Notes under the pieces: model-generated
The model's database searches: none
Seen by the model: only the letters and a program-made list of their open reading frames with translations
What the model was told of the DNA's origin: nothing
IMG/VR virus record: IMGVR_UViG_3300005544_000005
Span: 5,204-69,203 of that record
Direction: 5' to 3' (one strand)
DNA from: a virus
Lineage: Duplodnaviria > Caudoviricetes
DNA: 64,000 bases
Made by a program: the position numbers and the translations under genes
Shown: in pieces, positions 26,545 through 64,000 of the stretch
How the letters are laid out: the number at the start of each line of letters is the position of its first letter
Position numbering within the stretch: the first letter of the stretch is position 1

Positions 26545-26751
26545 ATGACACGTAAAAAATCACACACTGAGCACGAAATGCTCGCAACTATAGAGAAACT
26601 ATACGATCAACTTGTAGAGGCGCGAATAAATACGCGGTGCTTCTGCCATGGTACGCGACACTATCCTTGTCCACGCTGCGAAGTTACACACACACAGACA
26701 GACGATATGCTAGATCTTATTGTGGCTGAATACGGATTCGAGCGGCGTTGA
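26545..26751 (+). CDS. Small Cys-rich protein between the polymerase halves
   Basis: CFCH...CPRC; GAAGG SD. Confidence 0.55.
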   Translation: MTRKKSHTEHEMLATIEKLYDQLVEARINTRCFCHGTRHYPCPRCEVTHTQTDDMLDLIVAEYGFERR

Positions 26752-44103: not shown

Positions 44104-45621
44104 CTACCACATCACCCCCGCCCTTATCCCGCTAATACCCAGCGTCAATTCATTATAAGCGATTGCGCTGGCGTCAACCCATTCGTCCTCGTCTTCGTCA
44201 TCGCCTACAAAGTCGCACATTAGATCTATATATCTAGCGTTCCAAGGACCTCTCACTATCGCCACATTCCCGGCTTCACACTCGGCCCGGAAAGCACTCG
44301 ATTTCGTGACCTTATCGACCATGGCCACAGTCCACATATAATCCCATCCGGCGAATGATCGCTTCCGACTCTGTACCACAGCGTCTCCGCTGGCCCCTGG
44401 CTCTCTCTCTTCTCGAATGGCACACGCCCGGCCGTCTAGTTCTGCCAATTGATGCATCATCATATCGACACCAAGATCCGTCAACCGCTCGTCCTCGTCT
44501 CGAAAAGCGTCTTCGATATAGAATCGCGGGCTAGCTTTCGGATCGATTGTCATAGCTATCTTGACACTGCCTGTGTGGTCTTTCGCTTTACCTGTCGCAG
44601 TGTCCCACCCTCTTACTCTACGCACCCGATACGGTACTTGATTGGCATCCACAAATTGCTGGAAATACTTCCGTTTGAATAGTCCGCCGGCCAGTGGAAT
44701 AGGGTGCTGTTGTAGTTGCGCGGCAGACCCGTACGGACCTAGCTCTATCTCTAATTCGCGCACCTTTTTCTCATTAAATACACCGGGAAATAATAGCTCG
44801 CCCTCTACCGTTCGCCAGTCGTGCTTATCCGGTGTAATAATTCGTACCTTATCTGGATCGGTCGGGTCTGCCCTTGCCGGCTCGAATCGCATAGGTAGGA
44901 CTAATCGTTCCCACCCACCTTTGCCCATTAAATGGCCACTTGGATCATCCTTATGCAGCCTCTGTCCGACATTCAATACAACCGGGTTTAACCTTTGTCT
45001 TGTAGGCAGCGTGAAGTCTAGGAACCCATGCACCTTCTCACGCGCCTTTTTCGATCTCGCTTCCTGCGCTTTCAACAAGTCGTCTAGGATAATCCTATTC
45101 GGATGTTCGCCGGTTATCGCCCCACCCACCGATGACGCTATCCTATACCCGCCGGCGGAATTCATGAACTTTTCAAGCGCATTCGTCCCACGTGCCAATC
45201 TCACGTCTAGGCTATCCCACCCGGCCGATTCCCTCGCCGATTTAATCCAAAATGATTCTCTATACCAGTCGGATTGGACTATCGCGCGTGAACAGGTATT
45301 ATCCCGGATAGTATTGTCCGGTGCGTACGCCACGGAGATGTAGCGATATTGTGGCCGCTTAATCCATTCCCAGCACGGCCAGAAGACGTTAATGATCGAT
45401 GACTTGCCACAGCCTGGTGGGATGTTGATATCCCACTTGCGAGGGAGTTCTCCGGCCGATATGGACATTAATAGATCGCATAATACGTCTAGATGGCGAC
45501 CCCATTCGAGCTTGCGTCCTTGCGAGTAAGGGTAATACTCCCAGGCGCCGCGAATGAAATCGGGTAGCGAGTCCGCATACAGTGACGTGCGGAGGGAGGA
45601 TAGGGAGAGGGAAACGCTCAT
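44104..45621 (-). CDS. terL: Terminase large subunit
   Basis: NIPPGCGKSS, ILDDLL, QRLHKDDPSG, YSAAQLQQHP-like segment, RGWD, DEWVDA. Confidence 0.9.
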   Translation of the reverse strand: MSVSLSLSSLRTSLYADSLPDFIRGAWEYYPYSQGRKLEWGRHLDVLCDLLMSISAGELPRKWDINIPPGCGKSSIINVFWPCWEWIKRPQYRYISVAYAPDNTIRDNTCSRAIVQSDWYRESFWIKSARESAGWDSLDVRLARGTNALEKFMNSAGGYRIASSVGGAITGEHPNRIILDDLLKAQEARSKKAREKVHGFLDFTLPTRQRLNPVVLNVGQRLHKDDPSGHLMGKGGWERLVLPMRFEPARADPTDPDKVRIITPDKHDWRTVEGELLFPGVFNEKKVRELEIELGPYGSAAQLQQHPIPLAGGLFKRKYFQQFVDANQVPYRVRRVRGWDTATGKAKDHTGSVKIAMTIDPKASPRFYIEDAFRDEDERLTDLGVDMMMHQLAELDGRACAIREEREPGASGDAVVQSRKRSFAGWDYMWTVAMVDKVTKSSAFRAECEAGNVAIVRGPWNARYIDLMCDFVGDDEDEDEWVDASAIAYNELTLGISGIRAGVMW

Positions 45622-49527: not shown

Positions 49528-51723
49528 ATGACCCAACCGGCCGGGCCTATACTAGATGATGTCAGCGGCCGTCAAGCTGGCGGCAGTGGGGCTGTCTCGG
49601 GCAACGGTGGCGGCGATCCGGCCGGCCCGGCAGCCGGCCTCCACACCCCTCTCGGCCCCTCTGGTCTGCCCGGCCCCGACTCTGCCCTAGTCCGTCTCCT
49701 CTCCTCGGCCCTGGTCGAGCGCCAGCGCTTCCGGGCGTACGGCCCCGGCCCCAACCTCTACGGTGGACGGCGCGACCTCTATGGCGCGGTGGGTTATCCT
49801 AGACAGTTAACGAGTGACGATTACCGCGACTTTTACGAACGTGGCGACGTGGCCGCAAGATTAGTCGAATTCTATCCACAATCGACTTGGTTGCCAGCTG
49901 TCGCGGTGAACGAGATAGATGACCCCGACACACAGACGGAATTTGAGCGTATATGGATAGATTTTGATCGCCGACTAAATGTGATAGCTGACATTTTCAT
50001 GCGCGCCGATATCCTAGCGTGCACGTATCGCTATTCCGTCATCGTGATAGGCGCGCCTGGTGACCTATCGACTGAGCTACCTCGCGGCAATGGCCGCCCG
50101 GATGCTATCAAATATCTAACGGTGCTTGGTGAGGACAGGGCGGCTGTCACTAGGTTAGTCGGCCAGGATGACACCGATGAGAACGGACTATACCCCGGCG
50201 CGACTGGCTATATAGACCCGGTGTCTAGTTCGCGCTTTGGCCTACCGTTAACCTATTGCTGTAAATTCGGCGTTGCCATTAACTATTTCACTAGCGATGG
50301 ATCAGTTAGCTCGTCAACCGGATCGCTAATTGAGCGCGATGTACACTGGTCGCGCGTCTGGCACATGGCTAACGGCACGCTAGACAATCGCGTCTATGGC
50401 CAGTCTATGTATCGGCGCGTGGCTAATGCGTTAATAGATTACCAGAAACTACGTGCGGCCTACGCGGAGTCGGCATGGAGGACGGCGAGCCCCAAGATTC
50501 ATGCCAATATGGACCCGACGATGATGATGTTGCCGGGCGAGGAAGAGCAGTTAAGGGAAGCTATCGATAGGCTACGCCACGATATGGAAGATGTGGTACG
50601 TACCCGTGGTGTGGATATTAAGATGTTGTCATCGCCGGTGGGGTCTATGGAGGCTAACGTCCATACCCTGTTACGTGTTATATCGGCGGCGTGGGGTATT
50701 CCGGCGCGCGTGATGACTGGATCGGAAGAGGCTAAAGCTGCCGGGACGCAAGATGACAGACACACTAATGACAGGCAGACGGAGCGGTGGGGATATTATG
50801 CTACGCCTCAGTTAGGCGGGTTTATCGGGCGATTGGCTGATTACAATTACATGCCGCGGCCGAAGGACTTGACGATTGTCTGGCCGGAGATTGAAGAGCA
50901 CACGGAATCTGAGAAAGCGGCTATCGCTAGTCAGTTGGCGTTGGCGAACAAGAATCAAACAGACGCTCGCGACACGCCTATACGTACATCGGCGGAATTG
51001 AGAGATGAATTGTGGGGATTGAGAGATCCTATTATCATGCCCGACGTCGCGCCGAATGACAATCAAAATCTAAACGATAATCCTATGACTGACAATCCTA
51101 CTGTCGATTCCGTCCGCGCGGCTAGTCAGTCGCCTGATAGCCGCATCATCATCATTGGCGGTCCGCGACGCGGGAAGTCCACTATCGCCCGCAACCTCCG
51201 TACGTCAGCATCGGCTATTCCAACCTATTGTGGCGACCCGGTCAATTTAGTCAAAGAGCCTGAGGACGGTGTCACGTATCTCCCCGCGAATCTATCGTGG
51301 TCGGAATCGTCGGCGTATATAGCTGAGAATTGGCTGACTCAGCCCGGCCCATGGTGCTGTGAAGGTGTGGCGATGGCTAGAGCGGTACGAAAGATGGTAA
51401 TAGCCGGGAAGACTGCCATACTAGACGGCGTGGATATTGTCGTATTGATAGAGCCTTACGAAGGAGCCTCAGAGACAGCCGGCCAGGCGATTATGGCTAA
51501 AGGCGTGATGACAGTGTGGGCGGAGGTGGCTGATTTATTTCCACAAGCTAGGACTATATCGACGGGCAGAAATAGCGCCAATAAACAGTCGCAAGCGCAA
51601 TCCGCCACGGTCGCCAACCGTAAGCTTGACACGTGGGAAGTGACGATGCCGGCCGGGCGCCGTGCGATAGCGTCAAAGAAGAATCACAAATCTAGTCCGC
51701 GGTTTAGTTTTAAGGTATGGTGA
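49528..51723 (+). CDS. Portal protein (DUF1073-like) with C-terminal P-loop kinase-like domain
   Basis: VHWSRVWH, ISAAWGIPARVMTGSE; first gene of head operon; IIIIGGPRRGKST near aa 545. Confidence 0.8.
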   Translation: MTQPAGPILDDVSGRQAGGSGAVSGNGGGDPAGPAAGLHTPLGPSGLPGPDSALVRLLSSALVERQRFRAYGPGPNLYGGRRDLYGAVGYPRQLTSDDYRDFYERGDVAARLVEFYPQSTWLPAVAVNEIDDPDTQTEFERIWIDFDRRLNVIADIFMRADILACTYRYSVIVIGAPGDLSTELPRGNGRPDAIKYLTVLGEDRAAVTRLVGQDDTDENGLYPGATGYIDPVSSSRFGLPLTYCCKFGVAINYFTSDGSVSSSTGSLIERDVHWSRVWHMANGTLDNRVYGQSMYRRVANALIDYQKLRAAYAESAWRTASPKIHANMDPTMMMLPGEEEQLREAIDRLRHDMEDVVRTRGVDIKMLSSPVGSMEANVHTLLRVISAAWGIPARVMTGSEEAKAAGTQDDRHTNDRQTERWGYYATPQLGGFIGRLADYNYMPRPKDLTIVWPEIEEHTESEKAAIASQLALANKNQTDARDTPIRTSAELRDELWGLRDPIIMPDVAPNDNQNLNDNPMTDNPTVDSVRAASQSPDSRIIIIGGPRRGKSTIARNLRTSASAIPTYCGDPVNLVKEPEDGVTYLPANLSWSESSAYIAENWLTQPGPWCCEGVAMARAVRKMVIAGKTAILDGVDIVVLIEPYEGASETAGQAIMAKGVMTVWAEVADLFPQARTISTGRNSANKQSQAQSATVANRKLDTWEVTMPAGRRAIASKKNHKSSPRFSFKVW

Positions 51724-51750
51724 GAATAATGCGAGCGGCCCATCAACAGA

Positions 51751-53259
51751 ATGCTATCGGCACTCCTCCGGGTCGCCCGCGCTCCGTCGACGGTATCGGC
51801 CGGGGAGAACCGGCAGCGTCGACGTCTCCGAGCGAGGATAAGTAGAGCACAGATAGAGGCCATGTACAATAGAGCAAATAAGGCGGTAGTCGCGAGAGGG
51901 TCTGTGGGCTTATCACGTCCCATTCCCTCGTCTATTCGCTCGGCGACCCGGTCCTTGTCGTTCCGTCTATCCTCAGCCAAATGCCGCGAGGAAACTTATC
52001 TCGGCGAATCACATCTAGTCGTACCGGTAATCCCGTTAGTTGGCAATATAGTATTTTGGCCGACTGGTGCCGAGGGTTATGAATGGGTGCCTGATTACGT
52101 TATCGCCGCCGCTCCGGTTGGGTGGAATAATAGGCCGGTTGTGCCTATTCATCCGGACATATCGCTGCCAACCGCTAATACACCGGAATTCTTGACAGCC
52201 TATTGTTTTGGGCAATTGTTTAATACTTATTACGGTGCCGATGATAAGCTCCACACCGAGGCGTGGCTGAATCGTACCCGTGCGGCGCAAGTGGGGACGA
52301 TGGCAACCGGCGTACTAGCGAAGTGTGAATCCGGTGAAATGGTAGAGGTTAGCGTAGGGGCGCAGATTCAGTTTGAAAAGCGCGCAGGATCGTTCAATGG
52401 TCAATCTTACGTCGGCATATGGCGTGGACTGGTACCAGATCATTTGGCGGTCGGATTGAATGGTTCTGAAGGTGCGTGTTCGATTGAAGCCGGATGTGGC
52501 GGGCCGAGGACGGCAGTGACGAAGATTAAACCTGTTAAGCCTACCGATAAGTCCGATAGGCCGAGATCTAGATCTAAATCTAAATACGTATTCCTAGAAT
52601 CCAATCGTTCACGATTAATAGGAGCTACCACCATGCCAATGCCTTCACTGCGCGAATCCGTTACCGGCCTATTAACCGCTCTTCGCTTATCCGGCACTCC
52701 CGCTGAAGACGCGGAGGAAGCAGCCGAACTAATCGCCTATGGGTCGATGAGAGACTTGGTCGATAATGCAATCGCCAAGCTTCAAGCGGCCAGAGTAGAT
52801 ATTGTATCGCTAATCTCTGCTGAGACAGAATCGCCAACCGAGAGTGTAGAAGCGGAGTCGGCGGAAGAGACTATAGAGCTGGCGCAGTATTCGCGGATTA
52901 GAACGTTACTCTACTCTGCCGGTGATGAAATCTATGCTGCGTCCAGTGTCGTTTACGATCTGTATCGTGAGCACGTGGCCGATAAGTTGGAAGAGGAAGC
53001 TGCTGCCGATGGCGCGACACCGGTTGTGATTGTGGGCGATACGAGATATTACGCCGATGGTAGTGGCGGCGACGGCGCGAGATCAGCAGCCGGCGCGCGG
53101 CACAGCAAAGAAGACATGAAGATGATTCAGTCGACGCACGACACGACTGTCAAGCTCGGCGCTGTGTGTGTGAGCGAGGAGACTAAGGCGGCGGCGGCCA
53201 CGGCCACAGCCACGACCGTTAAACCGTGCGGATGCCACAATCCGGCGTCGTTGTTTTAA
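51751..53259 (+). CDS. DUF2213-like prohead protease with scaffold-like C-terminus
   Basis: WNNRPVVPIHP, EVSVG, PDHLAV, GACSIEAGCG. Confidence 0.75.
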   Translation: MLSALLRVARAPSTVSAGENRQRRRLRARISRAQIEAMYNRANKAVVARGSVGLSRPIPSSIRSATRSLSFRLSSAKCREETYLGESHLVVPVIPLVGNIVFWPTGAEGYEWVPDYVIAAAPVGWNNRPVVPIHPDISLPTANTPEFLTAYCFGQLFNTYYGADDKLHTEAWLNRTRAAQVGTMATGVLAKCESGEMVEVSVGAQIQFEKRAGSFNGQSYVGIWRGLVPDHLAVGLNGSEGACSIEAGCGGPRTAVTKIKPVKPTDKSDRPRSRSKSKYVFLESNRSRLIGATTMPMPSLRESVTGLLTALRLSGTPAEDAEEAAELIAYGSMRDLVDNAIAKLQAARVDIVSLISAETESPTESVEAESAEETIELAQYSRIRTLLYSAGDEIYAASSVVYDLYREHVADKLEEEAAADGATPVVIVGDTRYYADGSGGDGARSAAGARHSKEDMKMIQSTHDTTVKLGAVCVSEETKAAAATATATTVKPCGCHNPASLF

Positions 53260-53423
53260 GCAAAAGGCTAGGTGGCCGACTATGAGACGTTTAGATGAGT
53301 CGTTAGACGTGCGGCGCTTATTAGACTTGCCTAAACCAGAGATCGATCTTAGGAAAATAGCAATTTCCGCTGGCGGTAACGTTCAACCGTCAAACGTATT
53401 AACTCGACAGGAGGATTCCACTC

Positions 53424-54071
53424 ATGGCAACCGTAGATGAACTCGTAACCCGGGCCGCTAAGACCGGCCTATACACCGAACCGGAGCTGACGGCATTTCG
53501 CGCAGCGCTCGGCCCAAACGCCAAGCCCGAGGAGAAGGAAGCGGCGTTGGATGGATTGGTCGGGAAGTTGGAGGCGGCAGCGGATAAGGTGCGAACGGCG
53601 ACGGCAACCAATCCGGCGACTGTTAATCCCGCCGCGACCGCCAACCGGCCGGCAAATGCCACGGCGGCAGCAGCCAACCCTACACCCCCTGCGCCTGTCA
53701 CTGCCCCGACCGTTATGACAGTAGATGAGTATCTCGCTACTGCTCCTCCGCTCGTCCAAGGTGTGGTCCGTAAGGCTATGGCAGCAGAATTAGCTGCACA
53801 CGCGGCTATGCTCGCGACCGTTCGCACTGCCGCTGTGGCTGTGGGGTACACAGAAGCAGAGTTGACGGCGATGTCAACTGAGGATTTGCAACGTCTCGCC
53901 AACCTTTCAAATATCGCTACGCCGAAGATGGATTATTCGGGCCTGGGGATTGTCGCTCACGGCCAGGTTCCGGTTGAGGGTAGAGCGGCTGTCGTACGGC
54001 CGGCGGATGCTTGGGAGGATGAACTCGGCGACAAGAGGAATAAGGGGAAGTCAGCGGCAGCAACGAATTAG
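53424..54071 (+). CDS. Scaffold-like head protein
   Basis: AGGAGG SD; Ala-rich; position before decoration and capsid genes. Confidence 0.6.
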   Translation: MATVDELVTRAAKTGLYTEPELTAFRAALGPNAKPEEKEAALDGLVGKLEAAADKVRTATATNPATVNPAATANRPANATAAAANPTPPAPVTAPTVMTVDEYLATAPPLVQGVVRKAMAAELAAHAAMLATVRTAAVAVGYTEAELTAMSTEDLQRLANLSNIATPKMDYSGLGIVAHGQVPVEGRAAVVRPADAWEDELGDKRNKGKSAAATN

Positions 54072-54156
54072 GACGAACGCGGGGAACATTGAGTATGTAA
54101 CCAGTCTGACCTTTTAACGTTTACATAGACCGATATCACACGGAGGCCACTTTCAC

Positions 54157-54618
54157 ATGCCTAACAATCCGAACAAGATCCTCCTGTCCACACGGCACGA
54201 GGAACTTATCGTCAATCGCTACCCGGCCGGCGAGGATGGACTCATAAAGCCTGGCCACCTGATCGAGCAGTTCAACCATAACACGCTAGGTATGGCGTGG
54301 CAGCGAAATTCATCGGCTACCAATATGCCACAAATGATGGTGGCGTTGCCGATGGATATCGTAGGCCAGGGGATCGACACGCCGTATGTGCTTGGGGATA
54401 ACTTGGTAGCGCACCCGCTTCACTCGGGAATGGTGTTCTACGGGATCTTGCCATCCGGGCAGAATATCACCCGCGGCGATAAGCTACAGTCGAATGGCGA
54501 CGGCAACCTTAAGGCGGCGTCACCTGTCACGGCGGCAGGCGGGGTCGCCAAGTTCATCGCACAGGAGACCATCGGGCCGATTAACGTGCCGACTAGAGTT
54601 CGGGCGATGGTGCTGTAG
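54157..54618 (+). CDS. Head decoration/cement protein
   Basis: IKPGHLIE, GDKLQSNGDGNL; directly before MCP. Confidence 0.7.
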   Translation: MPNNPNKILLSTRHEELIVNRYPAGEDGLIKPGHLIEQFNHNTLGMAWQRNSSATNMPQMMVALPMDIVGQGIDTPYVLGDNLVAHPLHSGMVFYGILPSGQNITRGDKLQSNGDGNLKAASPVTAAGGVAKFIAQETIGPINVPTRVRAMVL

Positions 54619-54718
54619 GCCACCGAGCGACGAAATATTATACTATACTATATCAAACTACACTACAGATAGAAAGGGTTTTACCGTCATAGCTATCTGC
54701 TCTTAGGAGATTTCACAT

Positions 54719-55843
54719 ATGCCACTCGCCGCCGGAGTCACGGGTCCTAACCCGTCATTTACTGCAAACCCGAACGGTACAATCTTAGAGGGTGTGCCGT
54801 CTGAATACTGGCATAACCCTATCGGGTATATTCGTTCATGCACGCCGCCTATGCCACAGTCGCGCAACCCAGAGTACGAAATCCGCAACGGCGCACCTAT
54901 CCCTCTTCACGCAGAGGAACTGATCGATCGCGCTATCAAGTCAGTGGGGCTGAAGCGCTTGAAGATCCTAGCCGATCTATTGAATGCCGGGCTGAAATTC
55001 GTAGTCCCAGATTGGCTCGGCGTCATGGCCGTGCGGTGGCAGCGTGAAGGTGTCGTTGGTAATCCGCAGTTCTCCATGCTGCCTAACACACAAATGGAGG
55101 ATTTCGGCCTGGACCTCGACTTGGTGTCGCTGCCGATGTATTGCCTGTCGAACGGATTCAATATCCACCCGCGGCTGTTTGAAGAGTGGCAGCGGTATGG
55201 TACGCCGTTGGATCTTCGCAGCGCCAAGCAAGCGGTACGCCGGCAGAATGAATTCCTGGAGCTTTCTATTATCTGGGGCGCGCCGATTCAGTCGATGGGC
55301 CTGCCGGTGCCGGGCATCCTCACTGCGCCGCATGCCAACTTCGTACCGCTCACTGGTGCGCTTTCGTGGTACGACGCCAACAAGACCGGCCAACAGATCA
55401 TTGGCGATATCAGCACCATGATCGACGCGGAGAACGCCAATAACCACTACGGACCGTTTTGGCTGTATGTTGGTACTAAGGCAGGTAATCACCTCCAGAG
55501 TCTGGACTACAAGACTGCGGCATCCGCGTCGTCAATGTCTACGTGGGAGCGGATCGCGGAGATGCCGTCGATCGGTCGAATCGAGATCGCCGACTATCTC
55601 CCGGCCGACAATCCGGTCATGATCGACCCGGACGATAGCGTTATCGATGTGCTCTACGGGCAGGCGCCTACACAGTTGAGCTGGATGACCGGGCCGAATG
55701 GGTTACAGACACGGCACTTCATGGTGTTAAGCTCGATCGTGCCGCGGATCATCGAGAGCCAGACGAACCAGTCGGGGATTGTTGTTGGAAAGTTGAACCA
55801 GGGCGATGTGCTTACCTCGCCGTGGCAGTCGTTACTGGTGTAA
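54719..55843 (+). CDS. Major capsid protein (encapsulin/linocin-like HK97 fold)
   Basis: AGGAG SD; PGILTAPH, HYGPFWLYV, SIVPRI; head operon. Confidence 0.8.
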   Translation: MPLAAGVTGPNPSFTANPNGTILEGVPSEYWHNPIGYIRSCTPPMPQSRNPEYEIRNGAPIPLHAEELIDRAIKSVGLKRLKILADLLNAGLKFVVPDWLGVMAVRWQREGVVGNPQFSMLPNTQMEDFGLDLDLVSLPMYCLSNGFNIHPRLFEEWQRYGTPLDLRSAKQAVRRQNEFLELSIIWGAPIQSMGLPVPGILTAPHANFVPLTGALSWYDANKTGQQIIGDISTMIDAENANNHYGPFWLYVGTKAGNHLQSLDYKTAASASSMSTWERIAEMPSIGRIEIADYLPADNPVMIDPDDSVIDVLYGQAPTQLSWMTGPNGLQTRHFMVLSSIVPRIIESQTNQSGIVVGKLNQGDVLTSPWQSLLV

Positions 55844-55897
55844 ACGGAGAGTAAAGTACCGTACATATATAAATAGACTATACGGAGGAAACCATAC

Positions 55898-56188
55898 ATG
55901 CAAGTCCGTGTGATGCATGGGCCAAAGGCGACAGACTATACGACATATCACAACTGCCGCGGTGTAGTCGTGAGCCGACAAGGGGATGAGATCATCGCTA
56001 GATGGAAGTCTGGCGATGACGAAGATAGAGACGTTCCGTATATGGAGAAACGTGTGCCACACGATGGCCACGAGATATTTGTAATGGGGGATAACGGAAA
56101 AACCATTACGGGGTACCGGATCAAGGGGCAGAATGGTGGGTATAACGGCGGTACCGTCAACGGAGATGGCGGCAATGGAAACGCTTAG
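55898..56188 (+). CDS. Hypothetical protein
   Basis: GGAGG SD. Confidence 0.6.
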   Translation: MQVRVMHGPKATDYTTYHNCRGVVVSRQGDEIIARWKSGDDEDRDVPYMEKRVPHDGHEIFVMGDNGKTITGYRIKGQNGGYNGGTVNGDGGNGNA

Positions 56189-56663
56189 TCAGCCGGAAGT
56201 TGTTAAGCCGAAATATCTATACCTTATAACCGCTGGCGTTGTCGTCATTCCGGGCTATGTCGGGCCGGCGCCTGATTATATCTGGAATAAGGGTGAAGTG
56301 CTGGGGGTCGGTAGTACAGTGGAGTTGACAGAGGAAGACGCGCGTGGGATCGGCGTGCACAGGGTTAGGAGGGTGGATACGACCACACATACGCCCGTGT
56401 CCGTGCCTGTGTCGCCTACAACTATGCCTACACCAGTGCCCGCACCGATCCCCACCGTAGCCACTACGGCGGTGGCTGTGGATACGGATTGGACGTTCGT
56501 CTCCACGATGACAGTGCCGGACGTCGTGGCATTGATCGACAGCATAAACGACGTCGATTCTCTCTCTTCCATCTATGAAGCGGAGAAAGCCAGCCTAGAT
56601 CGTAAGGGGGTGCTTAACCGTGCGCTATCTCGTATTGCTACGTTGAGAGGGGGTGAGAAGTAA
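56175..56663 (+). CDS. Head-region protein with Thr/Pro-rich linker
   Basis: C-terminal VPDVVALI...EAEKASLDRKGVL motif common after capsid genes. Confidence 0.6.
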   Translation: METLSQPEVVKPKYLYLITAGVVVIPGYVGPAPDYIWNKGEVLGVGSTVELTEEDARGIGVHRVRRVDTTTHTPVSVPVSPTTMPTPVPAPIPTVATTAVAVDTDWTFVSTMTVPDVVALIDSINDVDSLSSIYEAEKASLDRKGVLNRALSRIATLRGGEK

Positions 56664-56669
56664 TCGTCT

Positions 56670-57263
56670 ATGCCTATTACCATCGATGCGACTGTTAACG
56701 GCGCCAACGCCAATTCATACGTGACAGTGGACGAATTCACGTCCTACTGTGCCACACGTGTACCTGTCGTGATATGGCTGGCAACTGCCACAGCCGACTT
56801 CATAGCGGTGTGCATTATCACAGGGACTAGGCTATTCGACGCTTCGTTTGATTGGACAGGCGTCGCCGCCACGGCGACTCAGCGGCTAGCGTGGGGCCGC
56901 AATGGAATGTCCACGCGGAATGGGTACGGAATAGACGGCGCTACTATTCCCGGCGATCTCAAAGCTAGTGTATGTGAGTTTATTATCGCTGTGGGGGATT
57001 CGGCTGTACAAGGCGCTAACCGTGCCGGCGATGATCAGGCGGCTAGAGCGAACGTCGCGGGGGTGAAAGCAGGCCCGGTGGAAGTGAGATTCCAGTCCGT
57101 TAATACGTTTACGAGAGAATCTGCGGATGTGACGATTAGGCGAACGTGGCCGGAGTTGAACTATGCTAGTTTAACGGTGCCGGATATCGTAAGGTATTTG
57201 CTTCCGGAGTCGTGGTATAGACGGGCGAGTGTGATGCAGACGATACAATTTAGAGTGTCATGA
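56670..57263 (+). CDS. Head-tail adaptor (often annotated DnaT-like)
   Basis: ATVNGANANSYVTVDEF, QRLAWGR, IPGDLKASVCE, KAGPVEV. Confidence 0.8.
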   Translation: MPITIDATVNGANANSYVTVDEFTSYCATRVPVVIWLATATADFIAVCIITGTRLFDASFDWTGVAATATQRLAWGRNGMSTRNGYGIDGATIPGDLKASVCEFIIAVGDSAVQGANRAGDDQAARANVAGVKAGPVEVRFQSVNTFTRESADVTIRRTWPELNYASLTVPDIVRYLLPESWYRRASVMQTIQFRVS

Positions 57264-57282
57264 CCGTGGGGAGGCGTCAACG

Positions 57283-57495
57283 ATGAAGAATACCTATTGC
57301 ACATACTGCGGAAGCGTATATCACCCGACTAGCCACTGCCCTAAGACGTATAACGGCTCAGCTAACAGAGCTCGTCTAAGATGTGCGTATTGCGGCGGCA
57401 CAGATCATAATGCAGACGCTTGCTACCGCTCGCGTCATTTACCTGGCCTAAGCCTCGTCCGTTGTGTGGCCGTCAGAATCGAGTTAGGTACCTAA
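57283..57495 (+). CDS. Twin CCHC zinc-knuckle protein
   Basis: CTYCGSVYHPTSHC and CAYCGGTDHNADAC, both CX2CX4HX4C; GGGAGG SD. Confidence 0.75.
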   Translation: MKNTYCTYCGSVYHPTSHCPKTYNGSANRARLRCAYCGGTDHNADACYRSRHLPGLSLVRCVAVRIELGT

Positions 57496-57600
57496 CTCAG
57501 CCCGAGGAGGACTATAACACAAGCCCAAGCCGGCTGTATCCCGGTAAGTAAGGCGTAAATAGCCACCACCCCGTCCGTCCTCAAAAAGGAGCCCATCTCT

Positions 57601-58008
57601 ATGGCCTTCCCCCTCGAAATCGTCCGCTCTGGGATTGTCCTTGCCAACGGCCTCACCAAAGGGCTACAATGCAAGGTGAAGTTTGAAGCCGTCACGGGAC
57701 AAGGGGCTAACGGCCGGACATACGCCGCGCCCATCTATATAGATGCCGCAGTGGATATGACAACTAAGGAACGGGTGAGACCGGACGGGAAGATATTGAC
57801 TATCGCGGCGACGGTGACGGTTGTGGGAGATATACCGGCTAATGGGACGGTTATCGTGGGTAATCCACGGCGTGAGCCTGTAGATCCACGCGATAGGGTG
57901 ACGTTGCCGAACGGGTTTACCGGGCCTATTATCAGTGCGCCTGGTAGTGTTATCGACCCGGGTACAAATCGCGGATTGATCCATGTGATAGAGCTGGGGG
58001 CGGTATAG
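57601..58008 (+). CDS. Head closure/stopper protein
   Basis: AAGGAG SD; DPRDRVTLPNG; follows adaptor. Confidence 0.7.
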   Translation: MAFPLEIVRSGIVLANGLTKGLQCKVKFEAVTGQGANGRTYAAPIYIDAAVDMTTKERVRPDGKILTIAATVTVVGDIPANGTVIVGNPRREPVDPRDRVTLPNGFTGPIISAPGSVIDPGTNRGLIHVIELGAV

Positions 58009-58045
58009 ATAACTAATCAAAAAGATAAAGAGAGGAGTAGATCAA

Positions 58046-58633
58046 ATGCCATTCACCAGATTCTATAACAAAACTACACTAGTAAAGGATTTGCCGCTTG
58101 ACGACTACGAGGCGATGGTAGATCACTTCTACTTGCGCTATTACGGGTGGTTTTTAGAACCTATTGAGGACTTCCCGCGAACCGGCCATGACGCTTTTGT
58201 AGCATTAATCTCTGTCTGTACGATGGCGGCGCAGATAGGTGGTCTATTATATCCATGTAGTTTATTTGATAGTCCGGAAGATAATCGCACGGCCGAATTC
58301 GCTACGCTACTAGAGCATTGGTTTGGCGATAGTTTTCCGGTATTTGTGATAACCGAACCCTCTGATGCACTCACAGACACCGGACTAGCTGCCAGATTCT
58401 ACAAGAGTGTATTTAACGGTAGCGGTTCTGATCCGTCTGTAGGAATATCCGGTACTGGCGTATTGCATACGCGATCTGATGATGGCGTAGATGTTATCGA
58501 TCCTTGGGTTTTACGTGACAAGGTAAAGGAAGCGTTTGAAGAGTGGTGCTGTACGGCTAAAAAAGCGTATAGTGAGGAGGGTCGTGAGCTGTATATGCAA
58601 GCGTTCCGCACGGCAGCCGGGCTAGACAATTAG
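58046..58633 (+). CDS. Hypothetical helical protein, weakly HEPN-like
   Basis: GAGGAG SD; AT-richer than neighbours. Confidence 0.55.
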   Translation: MPFTRFYNKTTLVKDLPLDDYEAMVDHFYLRYYGWFLEPIEDFPRTGHDAFVALISVCTMAAQIGGLLYPCSLFDSPEDNRTAEFATLLEHWFGDSFPVFVITEPSDALTDTGLAARFYKSVFNGSGSDPSVGISGTGVLHTRSDDGVDVIDPWVLRDKVKEAFEEWCCTAKKAYSEEGRELYMQAFRTAAGLDN

Positions 58634-58688
58634 TCAGACCTAGACAAATAAACCATACTATACTATAAAAGAAAAAGAGGACGAGACC

Positions 58689-61600
58689 ATGAGCGAACTC
58701 AGATATTTAACGGATGCAGAGTTAGAGCAGGCATATTTCGACGAATCAGAGATTTTCGCTGATACACCAGATCGCGGCCTTGTTAAGGGCCGTTTGAAGG
58801 CGATGATGCGGTCCGCTAACGGGGCACCCGCGAAATACACGTTTATATACGGTTACAAGGTGGACACAACCGATGTCGGAGAAAGCCCATACCGTATCGG
58901 TAGATTTATAGGTACTGCGGGATTTTTTCTTAGTGATATACCCGACCAGGCCGCTATCACCCGCCACGACATCGCCGTCGTTATGATCACGACCGACCGT
59001 GTACCGTCGTATTTCGCGCAAACTTGCCAACTACTCCGCGAGTCAGAAGGGCTAGACAGCTTCCTCGATATCGAGCGGTCTGGTGTGGCTATTTCCACGT
59101 TTATAGATTCGAATCATAAGCCGAATCGTAACGCCGCGCAGGCGCTCGGATGGGGGGCCAGTCAGAATCGCAAATGGGTGTTATTCCTAGAAGACGACCT
59201 TCGATTCTGTAATCGATTCATTGACTCTGTGGCGGCGTGGCTATCAAAATATCATAGCGCTTTTGACAACGGTTACGAACGGTACACCGCATCCCCTATT
59301 TACCTTTTTGGTTCTGCGTCCATTGTCGATACTCCTAAATCGAAAGGTATACATACTGTCTACGAAGGATTACCTCACGGTGACGAGTGGGCATCCGTAC
59401 CTATTGAGGGTTTTTACGGTACGCAAGCTTTTGCAATTCTTGCAGAAGACGCAGCGAGTTTAGCTCAACATCTGGCGGCAACCGACGATCCGGTCGGACA
59501 GTATGACTTGTCTATAGCTAAATGGTGTCATGATTGCTATCCACGCGTACAGTATTTCGTCACTTCTATACCCTCTTTCGTCCAACATATCGGTGAAGAG
59601 TCTAGTATTCGTCCGGGTGGACCACATTTTACTTTCCCGTCGTGGCCGGGTGAGAAGTGGAGTTATTTACAACAGGACATAGACGATAAACGCAAAGAAG
59701 CTGTAGAGGGTATATTCGCTGAGGTTGTAAAGGGTGGTGGTAGGTTCGCAGAAATACCAGGCTCCGATAGCGACGGCAATCTCCGACCACAATCGGCTTT
59801 AACTTCCGTCAAACCTTGTAATCTGATTTGCACCCGCTGCGGCAAGCCTATAGACGAAATGGACGTATCTGTGGGAGATCGAAAGGCCGGTAATAACAGT
59901 CCAGGATATAAATTTGCGCACTACGGCTGCTACTTCGCTGATGAAATATCACATCCTTTGCGCGATCCTGCGGTCCGCGCCGCTTACAAACGCGGCGATA
60001 TTCTCGACGGGCAACGCAGAATGTTGTCTTATTTGGAACAGCAAGAGGTGTGCAGTCCAGAAAAGGGCTGCGGTGTGGCCGCCGACGATCATTTCAAAAA
60101 CCCTGACCGTATTTTGGTGTGCGATGCGCCGCCTAAAGCTAATTTCTATAGCGCCGGGCAAGTAGCGAAAGATGCAAAGAAGATGGCCGCTATTATCACA
60201 GACGGTTATGGGCCCGACATAGTGTTAGCGCCGCCGTCTCAAATACCATCGCCAGAGCAATCGTCAGAGGATACCTTAACGATTAAACCCGGTATGCTTA
60301 TCCAGTACAATAATGCCACCGCAGTAGCTATGTCCTCTAGTACGGTACGCACCTGTACTAATCCGATTTGTCAAGACCGCACACCGAGTGACGCAGAAGA
60401 TCTGCCGCCCGAAGTCGCGTACGATGACAACGACGGCAAAGGCGACCTCTCCGCTCCCATCCTCACAACCTCTCGCCGTGTCCGTGCCGAGGACTTCCGC
60501 TCTGACTGGTTACGCCAATTAGCGGCGGAAATGAATGAACCTGTCAGAATGCACAGGAAGTTGTGGGAGTATGCGGCGATTGCAAAAGTTTATCTAGAAA
60601 GAGTGCCGCGCGCTGGATATCGTGCGTTCGACGCAACCGGGTACCTACGTCCACACGTTCTCGGTTTTGGCGTAGGCCGCGACCCCTTAGCTGTATGGTT
60701 TGCCAGTCGCGGCGCCGTTGTCGTCGCCACGGATAAACCCGAAGAGACGACTAGCGATGATTGGAAGTTAACCGGCCAGCACGCGAGCGGGAAAGATCAA
60801 TTGCGACGGTTGAAGAGCACGACGGATGGGGATTGGAAACGTATTACGTATATGCCGTGTGATATGAATGACATCGCTGTCAAATGGGCCGGCGGGGTTG
60901 ACATGTTATATGACCTCACGTGGTCTTGTGGTTCATTCGAGCATATCGGCGGCATTCAAGCATCCATCGACTTCTTCGTCCGTCAAATGGCCTGCCTCAA
61001 GCCTGGCGGCGTAGCTGTCCATACCACGGAGTATTCTACACTTCACACCATGCTTGACTCGCCAGACCTATGCTTACTCCGCTCGTGTGATATCGCTATT
61101 ATCGCTAGAAGACTAGCGGAACAGGGCGACTTACTCCTCCCATTCGACCCCACGCCAGGGAATGAGCCGGCTGATTTCTATATTGATCGGCCGCCGTATC
61201 CGGGCAATCTAGTTACACCGGTAGAGGGGGCTATCCCGGCAAGTGCGAAGCTAGGCGCTATCGGTCCGTGGCATTTATCGATGGAAGTGGGTGGGCATGC
61301 TACGACATCAATTGTGCTGATTGCAATACGTGGTAATGGCGCGCACGACAAACTCACTGACAGCGAAGTCTTACAAACGGCAAACGCTAATCGTGAACTG
61401 AAAAGCTTATTTTTAGCCGGCAAACCTGATAAAACCATTAAGCCATCTATCCTCTTCCTCGGTGATGCTGTAGTATCTAGCGGCTTTGCAAAGTCAACTC
61501 ACTCCGTATGCAACTATCTTTTCTATCATGGTTGGGATGTACGCGTCTGCGGAATGAATTACTATGGGCAACATATGACAGCTGAGGATCATGCGCGTTA

Positions 61601-62720
61601 TCCGTATCCCATTCACCCCGCATTCGACCCCGTCCATGGCCCATCTTCGCCGGATGGCTCTACTCTTCTCCCGCGATTGATCTACGATTACCGCCCCGAT
61701 ATTGTCGTAATCCAACAAGACCCGTGGAATATCCCAACTTACACTCGTGCGATAGATCAGGCGTTCTCAGCTATCGATCGCGCTACCCCTCCCATTGTCG
61801 GCTTCCTAGCTGTGGACGGCGCCAACCAAGCTGGTATGCCATTGAATCGTCTTGCGGCCGTGGCAACATGGACACAATATGGATTATCGGAATTACGCTC
61901 GGGTGGTTATACAGGCCCGGGCTACGTTATTCCGCTCGGCGTCGATACTGAGGTATTCCGGCCGCTCGACCGTCAAGCGGTTCGCCGGAAATTCGCCGAA
62001 TCCGTTCGCGCGATGCCCGGGAAGCTAGCCGACGACATCGACATAGAGACGACATTTATCGTCGGATTCGTAGGGCGGAATCAGCCGCGGAAGAGGATCG
62101 ATTTACTCCTGCAATCATTCTCAGAATGGATTCGCGGCATTCACGGCAACGAACCAGTCGCCAATGCCATGCTCGTCCTACACGTCGGGCCTACCGGCGA
62201 CACGGGATTTGACATTCCATCTCTCGTTAGGTATTGGAAACTTGACGGGCGCACTATTGTCTACACGCCAGAGATCGGTCAGGGCGAGACCGAGGAATGG
62301 CTTTGTGAGCTATATAACACATTCGATCTATTCGCCACGTGTACACAAGGCGAGGGGTTCTGGTTGCCAGGATTTGAGGCAGCAGCGTGTGGCGTGCCGA
62401 TTGTAGCACCGAGGTATTCAGCGATAAGTGAGCTATTCGGCAGATCTGCTATGATGGCCGAGTGTGTGAGTACGATAGCCAGTGCGCCGATCAATGGCGC
62501 TATGTCTACATTAGGCGGATTGGTATCTATTATACACTTCGTCGAAATACTAAATAAGATGTATAGCGCTAGGAGTCTGCGTGACGGGATAGCCGAGAAT
62601 TGTTTGCGATTGTCCAGTGAATATTCTTGGCAATCAACCGGCTGTCATTTCGAGCAGATGTTACGTGCTATACTAGGTTTTTTAGAAACTCTCGATATTG
62701 ACGACGACAACGACAGCTAG
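58689..62720 (+). CDS. GT-A glycosyltransferase / SAM methyltransferase / GT-B glycosyltransferase fusion
   Basis: LFLEDD and VQHIG; HRKLWEY, LGFGVGRD, SFEHIG, LKPGG; VGRNQPRKRID, EGFWLPGFEAAACG. Confidence 0.85.
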   Translation: MSELRYLTDAELEQAYFDESEIFADTPDRGLVKGRLKAMMRSANGAPAKYTFIYGYKVDTTDVGESPYRIGRFIGTAGFFLSDIPDQAAITRHDIAVVMITTDRVPSYFAQTCQLLRESEGLDSFLDIERSGVAISTFIDSNHKPNRNAAQALGWGASQNRKWVLFLEDDLRFCNRFIDSVAAWLSKYHSAFDNGYERYTASPIYLFGSASIVDTPKSKGIHTVYEGLPHGDEWASVPIEGFYGTQAFAILAEDAASLAQHLAATDDPVGQYDLSIAKWCHDCYPRVQYFVTSIPSFVQHIGEESSIRPGGPHFTFPSWPGEKWSYLQQDIDDKRKEAVEGIFAEVVKGGGRFAEIPGSDSDGNLRPQSALTSVKPCNLICTRCGKPIDEMDVSVGDRKAGNNSPGYKFAHYGCYFADEISHPLRDPAVRAAYKRGDILDGQRRMLSYLEQQEVCSPEKGCGVAADDHFKNPDRILVCDAPPKANFYSAGQVAKDAKKMAAIITDGYGPDIVLAPPSQIPSPEQSSEDTLTIKPGMLIQYNNATAVAMSSSTVRTCTNPICQDRTPSDAEDLPPEVAYDDNDGKGDLSAPILTTSRRVRAEDFRSDWLRQLAAEMNEPVRMHRKLWEYAAIAKVYLERVPRAGYRAFDATGYLRPHVLGFGVGRDPLAVWFASRGAVVVATDKPEETTSDDWKLTGQHASGKDQLRRLKSTTDGDWKRITYMPCDMNDIAVKWAGGVDMLYDLTWSCGSFEHIGGIQASIDFFVRQMACLKPGGVAVHTTEYSTLHTMLDSPDLCLLRSCDIAIIARRLAEQGDLLLPFDPTPGNEPADFYIDRPPYPGNLVTPVEGAIPASAKLGAIGPWHLSMEVGGHATTSIVLIAIRGNGAHDKLTDSEVLQTANANRELKSLFLAGKPDKTIKPSILFLGDAVVSSGFAKSTHSVCNYLFYHGWDVRVCGMNYYGQHMTAEDHARYPYPIHPAFDPVHGPSSPDGSTLLPRLIYDYRPDIVVIQQDPWNIPTYTRAIDQAFSAIDRATPPIVGFLAVDGANQAGMPLNRLAAVATWTQYGLSELRSGGYTGPGYVIPLGVDTEVFRPLDRQAVRRKFAESVRAMPGKLADDIDIETTFIVGFVGRNQPRKRIDLLLQSFSEWIRGIHGNEPVANAMLVLHVGPTGDTGFDIPSLVRYWKLDGRTIVYTPEIGQGETEEWLCELYNTFDLFATCTQGEGFWLPGFEAAACGVPIVAPRYSAISELFGRSAMMAECVSTIASAPINGAMSTLGGLVSIIHFVEILNKMYSARSLRDGIAENCLRLSSEYSWQSTGCHFEQMLRAILGFLETLDIDDDNDS

Positions 62721-62740
62721 ACGACACGTATACTCCGGCC

Positions 62741-63148
62741 ATGGCCTACTACCTTGAACTCATAGCCATTCAACGCCCGTTCGCTATCGGTCACGATGAC
62801 GACGGGCGGGCGTTATTCTCTTTCAATCTCCGCGCGATCGGATTCGGAACCAACTCCACTTGGGAGGATGACATCGCCACCTTGATTTCCGGGGCCGGTC
62901 TTGGTACTCTGTGGTCTGACATGTTCATAGGATCATCGGCGGATATTCCATCGGGGTCGGCGAATACCACGCCGTATATAGAGATCATCGGTACCGGTGG
63001 AATGGCTACAAAATTCACAGCCGAAGATAACCAGCTACCCAATTTGAGCGTACAGATCATGGTGCGCGCTGCCGGATACCAGAATGCACAGGTGAAAGCT
63101 AATCAGATATTCGAACTGTTGAACGGAAAAAGGAATTTTCAAGTATAA
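62741..63148 (+). CDS. Tail terminator protein
   Basis: GTGG...PNLSVQIMVRAAGYQNA; precedes tail tube. Confidence 0.75.
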   Translation: MAYYLELIAIQRPFAIGHDDDGRALFSFNLRAIGFGTNSTWEDDIATLISGAGLGTLWSDMFIGSSADIPSGSANTTPYIEIIGTGGMATKFTAEDNQLPNLSVQIMVRAAGYQNAQVKANQIFELLNGKRNFQV

Positions 63149-63282
63149 ACCACGTCACACTACTATATTATACCATGCCGCGCCATACCACACCACGACC
63201 ATACCACATTATCCTTATCGAAAGGAGACTACCCCATGACCTCGCCTTGACCTCTCCGTTATCGAAATAAGGAGCCCCTGCC

Positions 63283-63777
63283 ATGCCCGTCACCCCTCAC
63301 GGCCCACAAGCCGGCCACGGCGTTGTAATGTCGCTCGAATTAGACCCGGTCGGCGCCCCGGGCGTATTCACTCGTCTCGCCAATATAACCTCCGGCATCG
63401 ACCTCCCCAAACATGACCGGCGTGAAGCTGAGATAACAGCCCACGACAATACCATCGATGATTGGATGCTGTCGGTTCCGATGCGGGACGTACTAACCGT
63501 TACGGCGGCGTTTTGTTTCGACAACCCCAGCCACGACCACGTAACGGGCGCAATCAAGCTTTATTATTGGGGCGGAACCTTCGGTGTCAAGTTCGACGGC
63601 CCGGCATATCCTAACGGCGATTCCTCTGGATTCTATATGGCCAGTGGACAGTTGAAAACATATCAGATCAAACAGCCCAACCTTCAGGGTGAGCGCCAGT
63701 TAGACCTCACCTTCCGTTTCCGTGGACCGGAGATCATTTCCGCGCCGGCCACCGGTGCCGTTCGTTACGGTACGTAA
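63283..63777 (+). CDS. Tail tube (major tail) protein
   Basis: AAGGAG SD; DLPKHDRREAEITAHD; position. Confidence 0.75.
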   Translation: MPVTPHGPQAGHGVVMSLELDPVGAPGVFTRLANITSGIDLPKHDRREAEITAHDNTIDDWMLSVPMRDVLTVTAAFCFDNPSHDHVTGAIKLYYWGGTFGVKFDGPAYPNGDSSGFYMASGQLKTYQIKQPNLQGERQLDLTFRFRGPEIISAPATGAVRYGT

Positions 63778-63845
63778 AACGCTAAGATATAACGACAGTA
63801 CCGATAAGGACACTAACTTAGACGATAACAGAGGAGACTATCACC

Positions 63846-64000
63846 ATGTCACCAAACCTCACTGCCGCCCTACTCGCAGAGCGCGCCAAGCGCGTTACCG
63901 CCGTCGATATCCCGGAGATCAACGCAACCGTCCACGTACGTAAGCCGTCGTATAACGAGGGTCGGGACTATGCTAGAAAAAGCACAGCTGTGACGATGGC
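63846..64000 (+). CDS. Tail assembly chaperone (3' truncated)
   Basis: AGGAG SD; AVDIPEINATVHVRKPS; follows tail tube. Confidence 0.6.
   Translation, partial: MSPNLTAALLAERAKRVTAVDIPEINATVHVRKPSYNEGRDYARKSTAVTM

Follow-up and report, generated by a model that had tools for sequence, protein, structure and literature searches.

The question raised by this locus is what a small protein with two CCHC zinc knuckles does among the head and neck genes of a tailed phage, and whether it is a head-completion protein at all. To our knowledge, work on CCHC knuckles has been confined almost entirely to retroviruses, retrotransposons, and eukaryotic proteins that bind RNA. The DNA analyzed, in the following called the window, is a stretch of 64,000 nucleotides that corresponds to bases 5204–69203 of a virus record that is complete at 69,203 bp and carries direct terminal repeats.

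The zinc-knuckle ORF and its surroundings

An ORF of 70 amino acids was read from the sequence at 57283–57495 on the plus strand (stop codon included), with the Shine–Dalgarno sequence GGAGG (57270–57274, +) located 8 nt 5' of its ATG. The predicted product consists of a first knuckle (residues 6–19, C6-x2-C9-x4-H14-x4-C19, CTYCGSVYHPTSHC; 57298–57339, +), a basic linker of 14 residues with three Arg and one Lys (PKTYNGSANRARLR; 57340–57381, +), a second knuckle (residues 34–47, C34-x2-C37-x4-H42-x4-C47, CAYCGGTDHNADAC; 57382–57423, +), and a C-terminal tail (57424–57492, +), whereby both knuckles match the pattern CX2CX4HX4C exactly. In the alignment, the tail keeps the LPG and AVRI motifs of its subfamily, which in the window protein are separated by a 7-residue insertion relative to the subfamily. 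Scanning the six-frame translation of the window (127,996 residues) yielded three occurrences of CX2CX4HX4C, two of them inside this ORF and the third interrupted by a stop. By chance, 0.08 single motifs would be expected in the window, and about 2e-6 pairs spaced within 30 aa. The GC content of the ORF is 51% vs. 52% in its surroundings. An AlphaFold2 model, calculated with an alignment of 80 sequences, reached a mean pLDDT of 73, with block means of 80–88 across residues 1–40 and means of 54 (residues 51–60) and 47 (residues 61–70) in the tail, and it places a short helix at linker residues 23–30. We regard the ORF as a real gene.

The knuckle ORF lies on the operon strand (+), 19 nt past the stop codon of the head–tail adaptor gene Ad1 (56670–57263, +; phrog_477, E 1.6e-20; PF20557, E 1.1e-17) and 105 nt ahead of a head–tail connector gene, which is head-closure-like (57601–58008, +; phrog_3881, E 1.4e-4). 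The sequence-only reading of this locus, which had described 70 aa with two exact CX2CX4HX4C motifs, a basic linker, and a good Shine–Dalgarno sequence between adaptor and stopper genes, was thus borne out in its description of both the ORF and its location. Further upstream, the operon encodes the portal protein (49528–51723, +; phrog_146), a protein without assigned function (51751–53259, +; phrog_760), a product with a weak match to a major head protein family that is scaffold-like by its position (53424–54071, +; phrog_1650, E 0.003), a head decoration protein (54157–54618, +; phrog_766), a major capsid-like protein (54719–55843, +; DUF6260, phrog_771), and two products without family match (55898–56188 and 56133–56663, +). 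The connector gene is followed by a 195-aa ORF without family match (58046–58633, +) and then by a 1343-aa glycosyltransferase-containing fusion (58689–62720, +; phrog_2170, phrog_854), the central stretch of which appears methyltransferase-like by eye. TerL (44104–45621) is encoded on the strand opposite to the head–neck operon. A megablast search with window positions 50000–64000 against a phage collection gave no match.

Between the knuckle ORF and the connector gene there is a non-coding spacer of 105 nt (57496–57600, +). The spacer and the flanks of the ORF gave no Rfam match, and a consensus scan of the flanks detected neither a sigma-70-like promoter nor an intrinsic terminator beside it. 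Since the gene has its own ribosome-binding site but no detected promoter or terminator of its own, it is probably transcribed together with the late head–neck operon. A perfect 18-bp palindrome (GAGTTAGGTACCTAACTC; 57481–57498) covers the stop codon of the knuckle ORF. There is no T-run behind it, and the surrounding stretch of 136 nt folds better than shuffled sequences (z −2.6). The palindrome occurs only once in the window and is thereby ruled out as a repeated regulatory site. A 68-aa Cys/His-containing ORF at 26545–26751, placed between UDG-exonuclease and polymerase ORFs, is unrelated, since a search of the genome with the knuckle profile returned the knuckle ORF alone.

Family membership and conservation

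By itself, the window protein stayed below every Pfam threshold, with zf-CCHC_4 as best knuckle match (E 0.33; cut-off 27 bits), and it gave no significant match among the PHROG, NCBIfam, and PADLOC models. Among 80 members of its family, Pfam matches were obtained to PF21759 (AIR2-like ZnK4) in 47, to zf-CCHC_4 in 13, to the Lin-28 ZnK2 model in 11, and to PF00098 in three cases, so that the zf-CCHC search proposed in the sequence-only reading succeeded for the family and failed for the window protein alone. An unnamed PHROG was matched by only a few members. Searched against solved structures, the family profile found Air2 (E 4.9e-7 and 1.6e-6), the nucleocapsid (NC) protein of Rous sarcoma virus (RSV; E 3.9e-5, with an alignment running through both knuckles and the linker), and Lin28 (E 3.4e-4), whereas the matches to MoMLV NC (about 1e-3) and HIV-1 NC (0.03–0.05) were weaker. 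The closest Atlas clusters of the family are zf-CCHC families. Foldseek returned no significant match; knuckle proteins headed both lists, with E values of 0.2 for the PDB library and 0.035 for the BFVD viral library. A protein of two knuckles may be too small for a fold search. Overall, the profile matches to solved knuckle proteins support the assignment of two CCHC knuckles to the predicted protein.

Six relatives with 55–61% identity to the window protein came from a word-indexed search, and tblastn matched Gp64 of Klebsiella phage phiKO2, its copies in N15-like phages, and Pseudomonas phage RSP. The family as a whole is much larger, as 1.84 billion cluster representatives, when searched with the profile, gave 170 matches at E ≤ 1e-3, of which 72 reached E ≤ 1e-10. 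Most of the profile-matched sequences (115 of 155) are not longer than 135 aa, and 96 of these 115 carry two exact motifs. Prophage copies were found in assemblies of Devosia, Rhizobiaceae, Roseomonas, and Actinomycetota. The members of this phiKO2 Gp64-like family are stand-alone proteins of 58–80 aa that start with M-x-C and have two knuckles joined by a 14-aa linker with a conserved T and G, and L-R usually precedes the second knuckle. The window protein fits this pattern, but differs by three extra N-terminal residues and by the 7-residue insertion in its tail. The linker has a length of 14 residues in 83 of 93 members, the median pI is 9.1, and the net charge is about +6.

All eight metal ligands are invariant in 80 aligned small homologues, although these were chosen mostly for having two motifs and the invariance partly reflects this selection; G10, T22, G25, Y36, and G38 are conserved to at least 90% in the same alignment. 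Conservation of the Cys/His pattern in homologues, on which the sequence-only reading had staked its interpretation, was therefore found. In a core of 42 codons from 71 distinct DNA sequences, pN/pS amounted to 0.16 for pairs with a pS of 0.02–0.2 and to 0.20 for pairs with a pS of 0.2–0.4, which indicates that purifying selection acts on the knuckle protein. The motif P-K-T-W-x-G-[SN] recurs after the second knuckle in many members, and BLAST also pairs knuckle 1 of the window protein with knuckle 2 of Gp64. Because of the repeated post-knuckle motif and the cross-knuckle alignment, the protein resembles a tandem duplicate whose unit comprises about 28 residues.

At one locus two twin-knuckle ORFs occur in tandem (L060:6007–6428), the second of which (6219–6428) has diverged much further and contains a longer linker. 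Longer fused forms were also sought, which led to one over-called ORF and one possible read-through, but to no informative domain fusion. In the 321-aa protein P0157, a twin-knuckle N-terminus is followed first by a hydrophobic segment and then by a longer, by eye lysozyme-like region; the protein may represent a genuine fusion or two genes joined by read-through, and it echoes the endolysin-adjacent contexts described below (L007, L049).

We found no published study of the family, including the function of phiKO2 Gp64, and papers on telomere phages and on polyvalent proteins did not mention it. BFVD contains entries from uncultured Caudovirales phages that are labeled “Zinc finger, CCHC-type,” which means that automatic annotation has met such phage proteins before. 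The family was first deposited as phiKO2 Gp64 and is a twin-knuckle phage family without a curated model.

Gene contexts and accessory status

Among viral contigs, the connector protein of the window found two relatives, L101 and L102, and no relatives were found for its Ad1 protein. L101 is a complete phage of 63,876 bp with the same order of capsid gene, small ORFs, and adaptor, connector, methyltransferase, and glycosyltransferase genes, at identities to the window of 30% (capsid), 36% (adaptor), 46% (connector), and 37% (glycosyltransferase). In L101, only 12 nt separate the adaptor stop from the connector start, compared to 337 nt in the window, and a profile search of the whole L101 genome found no knuckle gene anywhere, while the same profile recovered the gene of the window at E 7e-22 as a positive control. 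In L102, the adaptor–connector gap is 433 nt and is filled by an unrelated ORF (L102:2474–2986, up to 170 aa, start uncertain). The 12-nt gap of L101 and the unrelated ORF of L102 show that the insert in the window sits in a variable slot. Thus, the knuckle gene is an accessory gene and not a conserved part of head completion. As in morons, it is present or absent at one junction between syntenic relatives; an own promoter and terminator, which would also be expected of a moron, were not detected.

The region behind the connector gene differs between the two phages as well. In L101, the connector gene is followed after 18 nt by a 269-aa gene, and no ORF of at least 40 aa matches the 195-aa ORF of the window (58046–58633), which may be a second lineage-specific insert. 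The region of the 1343-aa ORF is represented in L101 by separate genes, with the 269-aa ORF having motifs visibly similar to the central stretch of the fusion and a 654-aa glycosyltransferase being 37% identical to its C-terminal third.

Contexts of the gene elsewhere were drawn from 12 IMG/VR loci of the window's subfamily, 80 loci of a second subfamily (130 stretches confirmed), and six genome loci, using crude ORF calls and hand-picked neighbors that were annotated with PHROGs. In one broad, phiKO2-like lineage (part of L059–L098) the order is HNH gene, phrog_2473, knuckle gene, TerS, and TerL. In other loci, the knuckle gene precedes TerL (L004, L008, L016) or follows it (L010, and L057 with the portal gene next), follows the portal gene (L027, weakly L066), lies between Ad1 and the head closure gene Hc1 (L030–L038), or follows an adaptor gene (L046). 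Among tail and other virion genes, it was found ahead of the tape measure gene (L011, L073), ahead of a short ORF with a weak tape-measure match that is itself followed by the tape measure gene (L063 group), behind the tape measure gene (L043), behind the tail sheath gene (L042), adjoining MuF-like head morphogenesis genes (L048, L024), behind a virion structural protein gene (L023), ahead of a baseplate hub gene (L013), and ahead of a major tail protein gene (L054). It also adjoins genes for exonucleases (L003), RusA (L009), a helicase (L051), and endolysins (L007, L049). Most annotated contexts are thus packaging or virion modules, which with hand-picked neighbors is a lead only. Often the gene is separated from its neighbors by just 1–12 nt or overlaps them by 4 nt, and this tight spacing fits co-translation within operons. 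In the L031–L038 phages, a sialyltransferase-like gene (L031:5295–5699; phrog_4603, E 7.6e-54) was seen just upstream of Ad1, which is another glycosyltransferase within a head–neck module that carries the knuckle gene.

The Ad1 and closure proteins of L031 and L030 have no BLAST similarity to those of the window, indicating that the shared slot arose independently. Moreover, the contexts vary even inside the window's subfamily, at identities of 55–65%, which suggests that the gene moves between phages. The sequence-only reading had regarded the twin-knuckle architecture as atypical of tailed-phage head modules. This does not hold, given the 170 cluster representatives and the 130 IMG/VR stretches for one subfamily alone; the family recurs in packaging, head, and tail operons and stands directly after an Ad1 adaptor three times. 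The survey of homologues and synteny that it had suggested did reveal many phage homologues, but not the fixed head-completion part that the location had implied, as L101 lacks the gene.

Possible functions and comparison with known systems

The best explanation, which we hold with moderate confidence, is that the gene encodes an accessory zinc-dependent nucleic-acid-binding protein, which is probably made with the late genes. The knuckle gene would have been inserted in the window lineage into the variable slot between the head–tail adaptor and connector genes. Its product would be small and basic, with one zinc ion expected per CCHC knuckle, and its late expression would follow from the gene context. 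Binding of single-stranded or structured nucleic acid could take place via the basic residues and one conserved aromatic residue per knuckle (C-x-Y/F-C). From the analogy with known knuckles we infer both zinc and nucleic-acid binding, the latter being the most likely activity because of the homology with the knuckles of Air2, Lin28, and retroviral nucleocapsid. As the gene lies next to packaging and virion genes in most of the contexts, and this in phages that are unrelated, we prefer a role in which the protein acts on the DNA of the phage, either late in infection or during entry, whereby it might bind DNA ends or packaging intermediates and might be carried in the capsid with the DNA. It has been described that late-expressed genes among virion genes can have products that are packaged and injected together with the DNA (PMC5512222). 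Homologues in recombination, replication, and lysis regions (L003, L009, L051, L007, L049) count against the accessory nucleic-acid-binding explanation, as do the sub-threshold Pfam match of the window protein, the non-significant fold searches, and the position of the aromatic residue at C+2.

Knuckles need not bind nucleic acid, as knuckles 4 and 5 of Air2 contact a protein, Trf4. It could thus also be, although we regard it as unlikely, that the product is a protein-binding zinc module without nucleic-acid binding, either as an inhibitor or decoy of a host factor, for instance with a defense sensor or nuclease as its target, or as a small assembly or packaging cofactor that, like knuckles 4 and 5 of Air2 on Trf4, docks on terminase, portal, or neck proteins. 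The Air2 ZnK4 family is indeed the best sequence match, and the gene is small, patchy, and shifts its position within one subfamily, as counter-defense genes often do; its absence from the close relative L101 would fit as well. However, no PADLOC or anti-defense family was matched, no conserved partner gene was found across the contexts, and the strongly basic character of the family (median pI 9.1) is better explained by nucleic-acid binding.

Somewhat more doubtful is a nucleocapsid-like phage chaperone. It would be produced late, then be placed in the capsid or on the DNA end that is packaged last and sits in the portal–neck channel, and enter the cell with the DNA. In the cell, it might shield the end or speed the annealing of cohesive ends. 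If true, this would explain the repeated siting of the gene beside terminase, HNH, portal, adaptor, and closure genes, and the CCHC pair would be a virion nucleic-acid module common to DNA phages and retroelements, by descent or convergence.

A regulator of late genes, acting transcriptionally or post-transcriptionally by binding to late promoters or late mRNA, appears improbable. The size and the putative zinc-binding character of the protein would suit a small regulator, Lin28-type knuckles recognize specific RNA motifs, and a 105-nt spacer with a palindrome lies behind the gene. P2 Ogr, a small zinc-binding phage regulator, is a loose analogue. However, Ogr/Delta late activators have the spacing C-x2-C-x22-C-x4-C, which is absent from the window protein with its two CCHC motifs, and the Pfam scan gave no Ogr/Delta match at E ≤ 1. 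The gene also sits inside the late operons that such a regulator would control, it keeps no constant position with respect to a promoter or leader, and the palindrome is present in a single copy in the window and has no Rfam match.

We consider it still less probable that the protein is a stoichiometric structural component of the neck, i.e., a true head-completion protein. The slot formed by Ad1, knuckle gene, and head closure gene is seen in at least three unrelated lineages (the window, L030–L038, and L046), but the complete syntenic relative L101 has the neck module without the knuckle gene, and in other phages the same subfamily adjoins genes for an exonuclease, RusA, an endolysin, or terminase. 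Finally, an insert that is decaying or has no function, or an ORF that arose by chance, to which the poorly modeled tail with its 7-residue insertion compared to the subfamily and the absence of the gene from the nearest relative L101 might point, is very improbable in view of eight intact ligands, a good ribosome-binding site, purifying selection on the family, and the chance expectation of about 2e-6 for the motif pair.

The family represents a sizeable group of stand-alone twin-knuckle proteins in tailed phages that is under selection, dispensable, and shifts its position between phages. If one member binds DNA ends or RNA or travels in the capsid, a function would be at hand for well over a hundred phage protein clusters, and a new type of small late accessory factor would be defined. 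For the window, the annotation is improved, as the gene is now described as an accessory zinc-knuckle gene and not as a head-completion component.

Among the known knuckle proteins, bacterial-type proteins with five N-terminal CCHC knuckles that precede SH3_3, SPOR, Lcl_C, or Fib_succ_major domains (P0094, P0095, P0109, P0124, P0134) differ from the phage family. They contain C-x2-C-G-S-x2-H-x4-C-P-H-G repeats, pass the Pfam zf-CCHC cut-off, and match the phage profile at E 1e-8 to 1e-4, but they are long, multi-domain proteins with short inter-knuckle linkers and are not phage-encoded as far as seen. We know of no described function for them. Knuckles 4–5 of yeast Air2 (PF21759; PDB 3nyb, 2lli) are the best sequence match and share with the phage proteins the post-knuckle motif C-P-x-[IT]-W. 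However, Air2 is a eukaryotic nuclear RNA-surveillance cofactor of 344 aa with five knuckles, whereas the phage protein consists of two knuckles alone. Lin28 is similar in having two adjacent knuckles that form one RNA-binding unit and occupied the top, non-significant Foldseek rows, but its linker is very short, it has an added cold-shock domain, and the residues with which it specifically recognizes GGAG are not evident among the phage proteins.

The retroviral NC-like architecture, which the sequence-only reading had put in the foreground, was confirmed as far as the two knuckles and the basic linker are concerned, but not with respect to a Gag origin or an aromatic residue at C+1. Like the phage protein, retroviral NC is small and basic and carries CX2CX4HX4C knuckles, two of them with a basic linker in RSV and HIV-1. 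In contrast, NC is cut from Gag beside the capsid domains, while the phage protein is encoded by a stand-alone ORF of a DNA phage with its own ribosome-binding site. In HIV-1 NC, the aromatic residue directly after the first Cys (F16, W37) forms a base-stacking platform, whereas the phage knuckles have Thr or Ala at C+1 and the aromatic at C+2 (Y8, Y36; C-T-Y-C). The phage linker is also longer than that of HIV-1 NC, constant in length, and partly helical in the model.

Among phage-encoded proteins, the comparison leads to phiKO2 Gp64, a protein of 66 aa that shows 55% identity to the window protein over residues 1–47 and has both knuckles and the 14-residue linker. As in the window, it is the product of a small stand-alone gene, with copies in the N15-like telomere phages Kpn74, 48ST307, KpLi5, and NAR688. 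The gene maps to the right end of the virion genome, where an HNH endonuclease gene precedes it by a few genes, and its IMG/VR look-alikes lie directly upstream of TerS–TerL, whereas the gene of the window lies in the neck module. Gp64, which is annotated only as Gp64 or hypothetical, further differs in its acidic tail (...NDD..LD). With these relatives, the phiKO2-type Klebsiella telomere phages provide a cultured model for the family.
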